Positions 60,466-61,833 of a DNA stretch of 64,000 nucleotides are shown here, piece by piece. The stretch's first letter is position 1, and every line of letters begins with the position of its first letter. Made by a program: the position numbers and the translations under genes. The stretch is from contig LBYD01000001.1 in NCBI GenBank assembly GCA_000995965.1, positions 279,040 through 343,039 on the forward strand. The letters are read 5' to 3'. The stretch is from Candidatus Moranbacteria bacterium GW2011_GWC2_40_12 (lineage in GTDB: Bacteria; Patescibacteriota; Minisyncoccia; Moranbacterales; UBA11712). The notes under the pieces are model-generated. The model ran no database searches and had not been told where the DNA came from. It saw only the letters and a list, made by a program, of their open reading frames with translations.

Positions 60466-60611
60466 TTCATTAAAAATAAAATCTTCCGCATAGGAAGATA
60501 AGAAATTTATATCTTTCCCTTGCGGGCTAGAGGTAGCACCACGTCTAATAAAAATTAGATTGGTTGCTGGCAGGTCGCAGGGCTAGTTCCCTCGCTGCGC
60601 TCTTGATACTC
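60466..60611 (-). promoter_or_regulatory. SAM-I (S-box) riboswitch with terminator expression platform in the metK leader
   Basis: minus-strand AUCAAGAG-CGCAGCGAGGGAACUAGCCCUGCGACCUGCCAGCAACC...GGUGCUACCUCUAGCCCGCAAGGGAAAGAUA matches SAM-I core; followed by AUCUUCCUAUGCGGAAGAU + UUUAUUUUU just before ATG. Confidence 0.7.
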
Positions 60612-60699
60612 GCCCCGACCTTAATGCGTCGGGGCTTTATTCAATTTTCGAAAGATATATGTATTATAGCGTTTTATATATTCGAGTCAAGGACAATAG

Positions 60700-60772
60700 T
60701 GGACCCGAGGGGATTCGAACCCCTCGCCTCCTCGGTGCAAACGAGGCGCTCTACCAAATGAGCTACGGGCCC
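60700..60772 (-). tRNA. tRNA-Ala (anticodon UGC)
   Basis: cloverleaf folds; G3:U70 identity pair; anticodon loop UUUGCAC. Confidence 0.85.
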
Positions 60773-60789
60773 AAATATACAGTTTATCT

Positions 60790-60860
60790 TGTAAGGCTGT
60801 AAAACAAAAAAGGCGCTCGGACCCTGTCCGCCTTTGGCGGAAAATGAGCTACGGGCCCGC
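60790..60860. repeat. element upstream of tRNA-Ala: conserved hairpin (GGCGCUCGGACCCUGUCCGCC) plus direct copy of the first 20 nt of tRNA-Ala
   Basis: aaaatgagctacgggcccgc at 60841-60860 duplicates tRNA 5' end (60753-60772). Confidence 0.6.
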
Positions 60861-60877
60861 AAACCTAGTTCAAGATG

Positions 60878-60990
60878 CAAAAATCAAAATGAAAAATTTT
60901 GGTGTTCGCTTCGCTCACTTATTTTTAAAAAATAATCATCGCGAAGCGATACATTAATTTTGCACTTTTAATTTTGAATTTTCAATTTAT
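60878..60990. repeat. about 110-bp dispersed repeat with inverted TCGCTTCGC/GCGAAGCGA arms (copy 1)
   Basis: about 85% identical to 63068-63175. Confidence 0.7.
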
Positions 60991-60994
60991 TATG

Positions 60995-61068
60995 TGGGCG
61001 ATCGAGGATTCGAACCTCGGACCTCGTCATTATCAGTGACGCGCTCTAACCAACTGAGCTAATCGCCC
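60995..61068 (-). tRNA. tRNA-Ile (anticodon GAU)
   Basis: cloverleaf folds; anticodon loop CUGAUAA. Confidence 0.85.
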
Positions 61069-61118
61069 AAAGTTTGTTTCTTGCTACGTAGTTTGTTACG
61101 TAACGAGGTAAGTAAATG

Positions 61119-61191
61119 TGGGTCGTGCAGGGATCGAACCTGCGACCATCAGCTTAAAAGGCTGCTGCTCTACCAACTGAGCTAACGACCC
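61119..61191 (-). tRNA. tRNA-Lys (anticodon UUU)
   Basis: cloverleaf folds; anticodon loop CUUUUAA. Confidence 0.85.
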
Positions 61192-61214
61192 GTGATTATT
61201 CACTTTAATTTCTA

Positions 61215-61277
61215 TTTTGCAAAAGTCTGTTGCTCGGACCTTGCCCGCCTCTGGAGGGAACTGAGCTAACGACCCGA
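61215..61277. repeat. element upstream of tRNA-Lys: conserved hairpin (UUGCUCGGACCUUGCCCGCC) plus direct copy of first about 18 nt of tRNA-Lys
   Basis: gaactgagctaacgacccg at 61259-61277 duplicates tRNA 5' end (61173-61191). Confidence 0.6.
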
Positions 61278-61335
61278 AAACACATAAAAACGGCCTATAT
61301 CTAGGCAACGATAAAATTATACTATAAAAATAAAT

Positions 61336-61833
61336 TTAGTCAATTCTTTTCCGCACCGCACCCAAATAAATGAGCGGAGCGACAGCCCAGGCAAATCTCC
61401 AGATATCATCTGTGAAAAATTTCCGCGTGGCGGGAGTGATGATGTCAGCCAGTTCCTTGGGTGTGTACCAGTTCAATATGACCGAAAGCGAGAGCCCGAT
61501 CACAATGGCCGTGCCAAGCACCAACTTGACCATCAGCATCGGGCCATGTCCGGAAACACTTCCTCTGATTATTTTCGAGAAAAACAGCACAAATCCCGCT
61601 AAAATAGCCAAAAAAATCAGTACTTTGGCGCTCGGTTCTTTCAGGAAATCAAAATCGGCGAAATTCACCACGACGTAGGCAACATAAACCCCAAGAAGCG
61701 AAACCAGAACCCGATGCTTGCCGAGCGCAAATGAAGCGACAAAACTAACCAGCAGAAAAATAATCAAAAAAGATACGTCGCCCGCCAAATTGCTTTTTAT
61801 CCCCAGGCTGCTAAGTAGATTGTTGAGATTCAT
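61336..61833 (-). CDS. CvpA-like small membrane protein
   Basis: 165 aa, 4 TM helices. Confidence 0.45.
   Translation of the reverse strand: MNLNNLLSSLGIKSNLAGDVSFLIIFLLVSFVASFALGKHRVLVSLLGVYVAYVVVNFADFDFLKEPSAKVLIFLAILAGFVLFFSKIIRGSVSGHGPMLMVKLVLGTAIVIGLSLSVILNWYTPKELADIITPATRKFFTDDIWRFAWAVAPLIYLGAVRKRID

Follow-up and report, generated by a model that had tools for sequence, protein, structure and literature searches.

Hairpin-interrupted 5′ half pseudo-tRNAs precede tRNA genes of Patescibacteria and may be footprints of tRNA-gene-targeting insertion cassettes

The stretch of 64,000 nt analysed here (hereafter, the window) comes from Candidatus Moranbacteria bacterium GW2011_GWC2_40_12 (contig LBYD01000001.1, positions 279,040–343,039) and contains, on the minus strand, a cluster of three tRNA genes, two of which are preceded by a displaced partial copy of themselves that bears a hairpin. 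The cluster comprises an intact tRNA-Lys(UUU) (61118–61191; identified by tRNA gene calling and Rfam, 72.5 bits), a tRNA-Ile(GAU) as its second gene (60994–61068), and an intact tRNA-Ala(UGC) (60699–60772; gene calling and Rfam, 68 bits). No partial copy accompanies the tRNA-Ile gene, which acts as an internal control. The 3′ CCA is absent from all three genes, as is ordinary for tRNA genes of many bacteria, and must therefore be added post-transcriptionally. A sigma-70-like promoter (TTGACT-16-TATAAT, 61316–61343, minus strand) is situated 5′ of the Lys element; it is kept in relatives, where it drives tRNA-Lys directly.

The partial copies are real, lie on the tRNA strand and are far beyond chance. 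The first 17 nt of tRNA-Lys, GGGTCGTTAGCTCAGTT (61191–61175), are repeated upstream at 61275–61259, with a start-to-start distance of 84 nt, and those of tRNA-Ala, GGGCCCGTAGCTCATTT (60772–60756), at 60858–60842, with a distance of 86 nt. Each of these 17-mers occurs exactly twice in the 64 kb, versus 0.00 expected from shuffled sequences. A preliminary description of this DNA had already noticed both copies, giving them 20 nt for Ala and 18 nt for Lys at about 70 nt upstream; both stand, with the length corrected to 17 nt and the distances to those above.

Each 17-mer (T5) is followed by a 23-nt block, designated I, of the form YCCGCC-ARA-GGCGGR-CARGGUCC, which takes the place of the D-loop sequence GGUA. 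Similarity to the tRNA restarts 3′ of block I, at nt 22, where the Lys element has GAGCAACAGACTTTT matching GAGCAGCAGCCTTTT of the tRNA and the Ala element has GAGCGCCTTTTTTG matching GAGCGCCTCGTTTG. Since the similarity restarts past the block, each element consists of tRNA nt 1–17, a 23-nt insert and tRNA nt 22 to ca. 35; both are thus hairpin-interrupted 5′ half pseudo-tRNAs, more than a 5′ copy plus a hairpin. In the Lys element, T5(Lys) (61259–61275) is an exact copy of nt 1–17 still attached to the original upstream region and promoter of the gene (alignment A1). It is followed by I(Lys) (CCCUCCAGAGGCGGGCAAGGUCC, 61236–61258), a slightly degenerate version of the block with one U·C mismatch in its stem P1 (YCCGCC/GGCGGR), and by T5b(Lys) (GAGCAACAGACTTTTGC, 61219–61235), a copy of nt 22 to ca. 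36 of which 13 of the first 15 nt are identical, and which contains the 3′ strand of the D-stem, the 5′ strand of the anticodon stem and part of the loop. In the orthologous leader of a related genome (L043; collected loci are given L numbers), T5b is identical to tRNA-Lys in 13 of 13 nt. The element ends in X(Lys) (61192–61218), a 27-nt AT-rich spacer that is not similar to the original upstream flank in alignment A1. The Ala element, also on the minus strand, has the same layout: T5(Ala) (60842–60858), exact by match count; I(Ala) (UCCGCCAAAGGCGGACAGGGUCC, 60819–60841), of canonical 23-nt form, with a 6-bp P1, an AAA triloop and the tail CAGGGUCC; T5b(Ala) (GAGCGCCTTTTTTG, 60805–60818), a copy of nt 22–35 identical in 12 of 14 nt that provides a U-run behind the T5-I hairpin; and a 32-nt spacer, X(Ala) (60773–60804), between T5b(Ala) and the intact tRNA-Ala.

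The two elements are 80% identical over 50 nt and have in common the core GGCGGRCARGGTCCGAGC, which is found at no other place in the window (0.09 expected). Neither pseudo-tRNA was called by ARAGORN or by the Rfam tRNA model, and a search of Rfam 15 (riboswitches, T-box, leaders, ribozymes, tmRNA) returned no match on either element, even at E≤10. Promoter-like pairs are present in the X(Lys) region (TTTGCA-17-AATAAT, 61223–61195, minus strand) and inside X(Ala) (TTTACA-18-TATATT, 60803–60774, minus strand); in both, the −10 hexamer stops merely 1–3 nt ahead of the tRNA +1.

A comparison with related genomes, suggested in the preliminary description, revealed that the block is missing from two collinear relatives. 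In L143 (MetK 78% identical) and L140 (85%), tRNA-Lys follows directly on an upstream sequence and promoter that are those of the window, with no leader, and the tRNA-Lys gene is 100% identical in the window, L043, L143 and L140. Alignment A1 of these four genomes shows a clean 84-nt indel, filled in the window and L043 and empty in L143 and L140; the empty sites in close relatives identify the 84-bp block as a presence/absence polymorphism. The left, partial copy is the one joined to the original flank, which indicates that the extra block (E) consists of I, nt 22 to ca. 35, X and a new nt 1–17. Because X is not similar to the original flank, the duplicated segment ends at the tRNA +1. The filled or empty state is discordant with flank similarity, the window resembling L143 and L043 resembling L140, which means that the block was either lost repeatedly, as 17-nt direct repeats readily allow, or transferred. 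Loci L040, L046, L062 and L031 contain tandem arrays of E; in the promoter-proximal, oldest unit of L031 both T5 (12/17) and I are decayed, and the window Lys copy already has its P1 mismatch.

Exact-pattern, motif-anchored scans, which detect intact copies only, recovered the same arrangement from many other genomes. A 21-position pattern with 19 bases fixed retrieved 32 loci from 185,579 species genomes, of which 28 were real and came from Patescibacteria-type metagenome-assembled genomes (MAGs), namely Moran-, Levy-, Nomura-, Parcu- and Saccharibacteria, plus some labelled Bdellovibrionales. In metagenome contigs, a pattern without the D-stem retrieved 86 loci, ca. 55 of them real. Both scans total ca. 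70 distinct instances, all on Patescibacteria-type contigs, and the strict motif is found in merely ca. 25 MAGs of the species genomes. Contig Ga0208245_1009766 (L071) contains both elements of the window, and its 46-nt core-and-flank sequences do not differ from those of the window. The 16-nt core had 20 matches in viral contigs (IMG/VR), all of them chance matches in GC-rich coding DNA, and a viral origin was rejected. The instances involve at least nine isotypes: Thr(CGU/GGU/UGU), Ala(UGC/GGC/CGC), Lys(UUU/CUU), Phe, Val, Asn, Cys, Ser and Pro; the reservation in the preliminary description, that the likeness might be confined by chance to two tRNAs, therefore falls away.

Across these loci the element follows its own tRNA. 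Its flanks track the D-stem of that gene (GCUC..GAGC, GUAU..AUAC, GCGC..GCGC and others), and the insertion point of block I is constant, right after D-loop nt 16/17. T5 is identical to the tRNA (17/17) in about half of the cases; in the other half the D-arm part is preserved and the acceptor part has drifted, as a fossil would. For several lineages it is the leader that preserves an acceptor sequence since altered in the tRNA itself, so that the T5 match reflects ancestry and not an ongoing requirement. All instances except those of three lineages are 5′ of, and sense to, the tRNA whose 5′ half is copied. In the exceptions (the L068 group, L095/L108 and L130), block I occupies the variable-loop position of a pseudo-tRNA-Ala that copies the 3′ half and is found between tRNA-Ala and the 23S rRNA gene (L068 9026–9075; L095 6495–6541; L130 381–328, minus strand). 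Pseudo-copies are always upstream with a D-loop block and always downstream with a variable-loop block. Among extra 5′ copies, 39 of 45 bear block I, all at the single D-loop position, and an I-free 5′ copy accompanies just 6 of the ca. 97 tRNAs in the collected loci that lack an I leader. A boxA sequence, UGGCUCUUUAACAA, occurs at L095 6652–6665, downstream of the 3′ half pseudo-tRNA-Ala. The 3′ type copy of L130 gave a sub-threshold tmRNA match (23.4 bits versus 47, E=7e-6), owing to its Ala-type acceptor and T-arm. A tmRNA or split-tRNA half was rejected, since ARAGORN called no tmRNA, the 3′ type copies lie between tRNA-Ala and 23S, and no complementary half is present in the window.

The scan patterns fixed the bases of the tail CARGGUCC, and for this reason its invariance is evidence of nothing. 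The first base of block I and the base after GGCGG do covary (U-A 41, C-G 11, C·A 9, U·G 0; Fisher's exact p=4e-7), and the observed score was reached in 0 of 500 shuffles. This covariation of the terminal pair indicates that the true stem is the 6-bp P1 hairpin, YCCGCC-ARA-GGCGGR. One copy from Saccharibacteria (L028) has a 7-nt loop in place of the triloop. The minimum-free-energy structure of the Ala element (−25.8 kcal/mol, z=−2.1) includes P1 and forms a strong hairpin with a U-run behind it, and the Lys element shows no clean P1 and folds like shuffled sequence (z=0.1). The preliminary description had drawn a similar hairpin after both copies, and was right about a shared block; its stem (CGGAC/GUCCG, here P2) shows no covariation and uses bases that overlap P1.

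A search with a hidden Markov model of block I (nhmmer) identified the unit TCCGCC-ARA-GGCGGA at other sites of the collected loci, often as a perfect palindromic doublet of ca. 30 nt. Several copies of the 15-nt hairpin unit lie in-frame inside unrelated protein genes: those for a PFOR-beta homologue (L048 2010–2041), a membrane protein (L061 5499–5529), a small protein (L081 581–613), a protein resembling TrxB (L130 ca. 1867–1897) and an SMC-like protein (L137 11834–11853). It has the form of a ca. 30-nt palindromic doublet in four of these genes and of a single extended hairpin in the SMC-like gene. The encoded peptides include SAKGGSASGG in the PFOR-beta homologue, where this decapeptide aligns to gaps of solved homologues, and FPPKVDPPLAG in the membrane protein. 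These in-frame and scattered copies suggest that the hairpin behaves as a small insertional palindrome. In the window, just the two leader copies are clear, with 8 near-matches to CCGCCNNNGGCGG versus 1.5 expected.

Related loci also contain small GIY-YIG nuclease genes surrounded by matching architecture. In L132, an open reading frame (ORF) for an 87-aa GIY-YIG protein (PF01541, E=7e-14) lies after a pseudo-tRNA-Ala that bears block I and ends, at its stop codon, within the intact tRNA-Ala that follows; the pseudo-copy reaches the T-stem and has its anticodon arm swapped for CUCCGAUGGACAUCGGAG. Nine more GIY-YIG ORFs were found among the loci with block I, mostly within the tRNA clusters concerned, and six of them directly adjoin a pseudo-tRNA or an I leader. 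The order is hairpin-bearing pseudo-tRNA, ORF and intact tRNA in L105, L045 and L049, with the P1 hairpin itself in the pseudo-tRNA-Ile ahead of the ORF of L045; L114 and L047 have the mirror order (intact tRNA, ORF, hairpin-modified 3′ copy), and in L110 the I leader is directly 3′ of the ORF. Homologues of the L132 protein, fetched regardless of the presence of block I, came from four independent loci (L145/146, L147, L148/149 and L150). All four showed a 5′ pseudo-copy of the downstream tRNA, then the GIY-YIG ORF, then the intact cognate tRNA (tRNA-Gly, two Ala-GGC and Asp), and in their pseudo-copies the anticodon arm is swapped for CCGAUG-N-CAUCGG. The cassette proteins are 85–100 aa long and have no recognisable DNA-binding domain. 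Extra GC-rich hairpins at loop positions of pseudo-copies are frequent (L026, L079, L116, L120, L123, L046). The longest exact direct-repeat run seen in any cassette is 27 nt, and that left by the D-loop block is 17 nt.

Further elements were noted beside tRNA genes. A 533-aa serine recombinase (Pfam Resolvase; L148 2240–3841, minus strand) overlaps or abuts the tRNA-Ala behind the GIY-YIG cassette, and may belong to an element integrated at that tRNA-Ala. Another conserved hairpin module, CCYNRAAGUACAAAURCUUCGCAUUUGACUACRGGG + CAAG, is inserted in the D-arm of pseudo-tRNA copies of two isotypes, Thr and Ala (L116 5375–5415; L120 ca. 146–107, minus strand). In Levybacteria/Microgenomates-type loci, a second conserved element, UUGUCCC...stem-loop...GGGAUCCCGU with the palindrome CGGGAUCCCG, is placed between the I leader, just past the anticodon remnant, and the intact tRNA (L056 3900–3975, L066, L114, L022, L093), and additionally 5′ of tRNA-Ala in an rRNA operon (L095 6270–6336); it had no Rfam match. 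Finally, one 85-nt GC-rich, hairpin-rich element is situated behind tRNA-Lys in L043 (7124–7017, minus strand) and behind tRNA-Val in L143 (985–1090), each time followed by a 21-nt copy of the T-loop-to-3′-end of that tRNA; it forms a second family of insertions at tRNA genes that duplicate target-matched sequence, in this case on the 3′ side.

The elements of the window are displaced, hairpin-interrupted 5′ halves that result from an 84–86 bp gain at a fixed loop position, and this gain is polymorphic among relatives, recurrent over isotypes and lineages, amplifiable and subject to decay. We propose, with a probability of about one half, that they are the ORF-less footprints of tRNA-gene-targeting insertion cassettes of Patescibacteria. 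An insertion-type event between nt 17 and 18, in the part of the gene that encodes the D-loop, would displace and inactivate the 5′ half of the gene; the new nt 1–17 within E would rebuild an intact gene downstream, leaving the original promoter with the old 5′ end. Fuller members of the family would hold a gene for an 85–100 aa GIY-YIG protein between the pseudo-copy and the intact tRNA, with GC-rich mini-hairpins replacing loops of the pseudo-copy, and the elements of the window would be solo or miniature members devoid of an ORF. The nuclease might break tRNA genes in the manner of phage T4 SegB, the survivors being repair products that regenerate a whole tRNA. The hairpins could inactivate the pseudo-tRNA, by interrupting the D-loop or removing the anticodon loop, and could split the direct repeat into short stretches, so that homologous recombination would remove the cassette more slowly. 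Among the three interpretations offered in the preliminary description, which were partly supported overall, a small tRNA-targeting element comes closest, given the 84–86 bp gain, the fixed D-loop site, the empty relatives, the many isotypes and the arrays.

Several points weigh against this proposal. No GIY-YIG gene or remnant was found in the 64-kb window with tblastn and eight GIY-YIG protein queries, which returned noise only, and the same search detected no ORF remnants in the X spacers. The link between ORF-less elements and nuclease cassettes would rest on their common architecture, on L132 and L045, which have block I or P1 in the pseudo-copy, and on L110; the 87-aa GIY-YIG domain is itself devoid of an obvious DNA-recognition domain. 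The steps of the mechanism are ones that we infer, and the acquisition of target-matched T5 and T5b on either side of X, as well as the uniformity of the 23-nt block, are left unexplained by them. The covariation of the P1 pair indicates that formation of the hairpin has been selected, and a purely decaying scar needs no such covariation, though a mobile palindrome would. Moreover, the sequence of block I hardly varies between distant lineages or between loci that seem to be orthologous (Thr-CGU of six Moranbacteria-type genomes; the Ala-23S spacer of three lineages), which could reflect function; the exact-pattern scans that sampled these loci detect intact copies only. Lastly, the orientation is invariably sense to the tRNA, as a role at the RNA level would predict.

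These last observations lead to the best of the alternatives, that the hairpin block embedded in the D-arm is a cis-acting pre-tRNA element, or a small RNA released by RNase P, recognised by a protein or RNA that modulates processing, folding, stability or termination, with the tRNA-like flanks as an evolutionary residue. We consider such a functional leader RNA possible but rather unlikely. It would account for a block that is always sense and immediately 5′ of the tRNA (7–146 nt from the end of the block to the tRNA), within tRNA transcription units and at times between two tRNAs lacking space for a promoter (L037, L051, L105). The covarying P1 pair, the larger loop tolerated in L028 and the strong hairpin plus U-run of the Ala element are also as expected, as is the apparent retention at orthologous loci, which motif-anchored sampling cannot evaluate. 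Nevertheless, the block is missing in close relatives whose tRNA-Lys is identical and whose promoter is shared with the window, and it is sporadic among species genomes; old copies decay, to the point that the window Lys copy has a broken P1 pair and an unremarkable fold. Neither a downstream U-run nor a second structure is conserved across loci, the identical hairpin unit is found inside protein-coding genes, and there is no match to an Rfam family. The leader structure involved in tRNA processing that the preliminary description had put forward thus retains its sense orientation and one covarying stem pair, but has to face the patchiness among relatives and the decayed copies. If the block were a functional leader, it would be a new RNA motif of tRNA precursors restricted to the Patescibacteria radiation.

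Other roles for the block were examined and rejected. Pairing of the acceptor strand with the GGGUCC tail, in a minihelix mimic with G3·U70, is feasible with Ala-type acceptors and dominates the Ala fold, but the acceptors of Thr, Lys, Phe and other isotypes cannot form it, so that it is not general. A P1/P2 terminator-antiterminator switch was discarded because no U-run is conserved past the block and P2 does not covary. Hammerhead, hepatitis delta virus-like, pistol and twister ribozymes, the kink-turn and the T-loop motif lack here their core nucleotides or required pairings, as judged by eye against consensus sequences and from Rfam scans. A DNA operator for a dimeric repressor is disfavoured by the loop-length variation (L028) and the covariation, which favour a hairpin over a spaced palindrome. 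As to boxB/boxA antitermination, the boxA of the L095 and L068 rRNA spacers is ca. 130 nt or more from block I, and no boxA was seen near tRNA leaders in the sequences that were read. An antisense guide RNA for modification of the D-loop was dismissed since promoters are upstream and sense, and there is no space for an antisense promoter because X is missing in L048 and L116.

A plain tandem duplication, followed by an independent palindromic mini-insertion and requiring no nuclease, appears less probable still. Slippage between the AT-rich anticodon loop and AT-rich upstream DNA would duplicate the 5′ half during replication, and a mobile GC-rich palindrome, similar to the Rickettsia palindromic elements, would later enter loops and survive only in the dispensable copy. 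The window does show the main feature of a tRNA pseudogene originated by partial tandem duplication, a truncated, non-functional copy beside its parent. The end of T5b is usually in or near the anticodon loop, the sole AT-rich stretch of a tRNA, the palindromic unit is independent in many contexts, including in-frame in proteins, and a few 5′ copies are free of block I. Duplication alone leaves unexplained a segment bounded at the tRNA +1 and a conserved insert: X in the window is unlike the original flank despite a T5 of 17/17, a boundary that simple slippage does not predict. That 39 of the 45 extra 5′ copies have block I, all at one D-loop position, is a regularity not expected of a later, independent event, and also at odds with this reading is that the pseudo-copy is always upstream with the D-loop block or always downstream with the variable-loop block.

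We give very little credence to the idea that the hairpin-decorated pseudo-tRNA guides or scaffolds a minimal GIY-YIG nuclease to the cognate tRNA gene, so that homing is retargeted by carrying a copy of the 5′ half of the target and the copies of the window are stand-alone or spent guides. It would fit a nuclease of merely 85–100 aa devoid of a recognisable DNA-binding domain, the target-matched pseudo-tRNA with conserved hairpins in every cassette, and the hairpin type CCGAUG-N-CAUCGG common to the relatives of one nuclease. Against it, evidence for RNA binding by the protein is absent, the resident intact tRNA gene would be targeted too, the flanks of old copies drift from the target, and target-matched flanks are simpler as the residue of an insertion event. 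Least credible of all, although partial duplication of a tRNA is a hallmark of integrase-mediated integration at tRNA genes, direct repeats of tRNA sequence do flank a short insert here and a large serine recombinase adjoins the tRNA in L148, are the remnants of site-specific integration suggested in the preliminary description, that is, attL and attR attachment (att) sites of an almost wholly deleted island or prophage, because the repeat is the 5′ half of the tRNA (nt 1–17 plus 22 to ca. 35) and not its 3′ portion, merely 84–86 bp with a 23-nt block common to many tRNAs separate the repeats, and tRNA similarity continues beyond the insert, which an att-core crossover does not produce.

The neighbourhood of the cluster offers no support for such remnants either. 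Pfam scans of the 16 ORFs in the 45.6–64 kb region identified no integrase, recombinase or transposase, only housekeeping families or no match; the integrase remnants that the preliminary description had suggested looking for nearby are therefore missing from this region. The neighbours include genes for DnaJ, MetK, SecA, an SMC-type protein, RNase III, NusB and TyrRS, and the MetK of the window is 100% identical to a Candidatus Moranbacteria protein. Gene metK (60459–59404) is behind an ordinary S-adenosylmethionine (SAM)-I riboswitch (60506–60612, minus strand; 47.1 bits, exceeding the gathering score), and this unit has its own promoter (TTGACT-16-TATAAT, 60690–60663). Terminator-like hairpins are present on the minus strand at 60951–60937, between tRNA-Ile and the Ala element, and at 61306–61293, just past the Lys promoter.

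If the elements are indeed footprints of insertion cassettes, Patescibacteria would carry a previously undescribed selfish insertion in essential, single-copy tRNA genes, made harmless by an event that restores the gene and closes off the displaced fragment with standard GC-rich hairpins. Such an insertion would account for odd “partial tRNA” sequences and for assembly breaks at tRNA clusters, would show that homing endonucleases are linked to tRNA genes in cellular ultra-small bacteria as well as in T4-like phages, and would tie in with unexplained short insertions in rRNA genes and with palindrome-encoded peptides inside proteins. A very small GIY-YIG nuclease with apparently programmable targets would also become an experimental object. 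Full-text literature searches and Rfam yielded no published account of this arrangement of tRNAs.

One of the nearest known systems is SegB of phages T4 and T6, a GIY-YIG homing endonuclease encoded by a free-standing gene within a tRNA cluster, which recognises T-loop DNA of tRNA genes (PMC2330249) and drives tandem amplification of tRNA segments in the cluster (PMC13096335). Both systems have a GIY-YIG gene co-oriented among tRNA genes, presence/absence between relatives and tandem amplification (PMC2330249, PMC13096335), and in our related loci the ORFs abut or overlap tRNA ends. Presence/absence at a conserved site is seen here in the four genomes of alignment A1; a GIY-YIG ORF within the element is not in the window, and is present in L132, L045, L105, L049, L110, L114, L047 and L145–L150. 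The differences are that Seg- and I-TevI-type enzymes carry a C-terminal DNA-binding part, whereas the 85–100 aa proteins found here have the catalytic domain only; that the host of SegB is a phage and not cellular Patescibacteria; that the elements of the window lack any ORF; and that the cassettes are each bordered by a partial copy of the target tRNA modified by hairpins, for which we found no report in SegB.

The att duplications of islands and prophages likewise preserve an intact tRNA by partial duplication and leave a partial copy at the other end of the insert. In our case it is the 5′ part of the tRNA that is repeated, or the 3′ part at mirror-type loci, the insert is of 84–86 bp with no integrase, and the displaced copy contains a conserved hairpin past which similarity restarts. 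Miniature inverted-repeat transposable elements were discarded, because terminal inverted repeats are absent, the 17-nt flanking repeat is specific to its target, and the block itself contains more sequence derived from the target. Within the same organisms, rRNA genes of the candidate phyla radiation (CPR) contain non-intron insertions encoding GIY-YIG proteins and many short (<200 bp), uncharacterised ORF-less insertions, at the tips or bases of stem-loops (PMC11270868). These resemble the present elements in their hosts, in their location at stem-loop sites of stable-RNA genes and in their GIY-YIG genes (PMC11270868); they interrupt a functional rRNA gene, whereas here the functional tRNA is uninterrupted and the insertion is within a duplicated fragment. 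That paper does not mention tRNA loci, with 0 occurrences of “tRNA” (PMC11270868).

A multi-copy short palindromic repeat in varied contexts, including in-frame ones, is present in the related Patescibacteria loci. The Rickettsia palindromic elements that Ogata et al. described in 2000 are reportedly scattered, tolerated in loops of RNA genes and found in-frame inside protein genes. The unit described here shares with these and with other elements resembling repetitive extragenic palindromic (REP) sequences its nature as a short GC-rich palindrome of a reduced genome, located in RNA-gene loops and in-frame in coding genes. It differs in its size, of 15–23 nt or ca. 30 nt as doublets versus 100–150 nt for the Rickettsia elements, and in being tied to partial tRNA duplications at one loop position in many Patescibacteria lineages. 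The components thus have known relatives, in SegB-type endonucleases of tRNA clusters, in partial tRNA duplication at integration sites and in selfish palindromes; what had no counterpart in Rfam or in the literature searched is their combination, a self-restoring insertion in a tRNA loop with standard hairpins capping the displaced fragment in cellular ultra-small bacteria.

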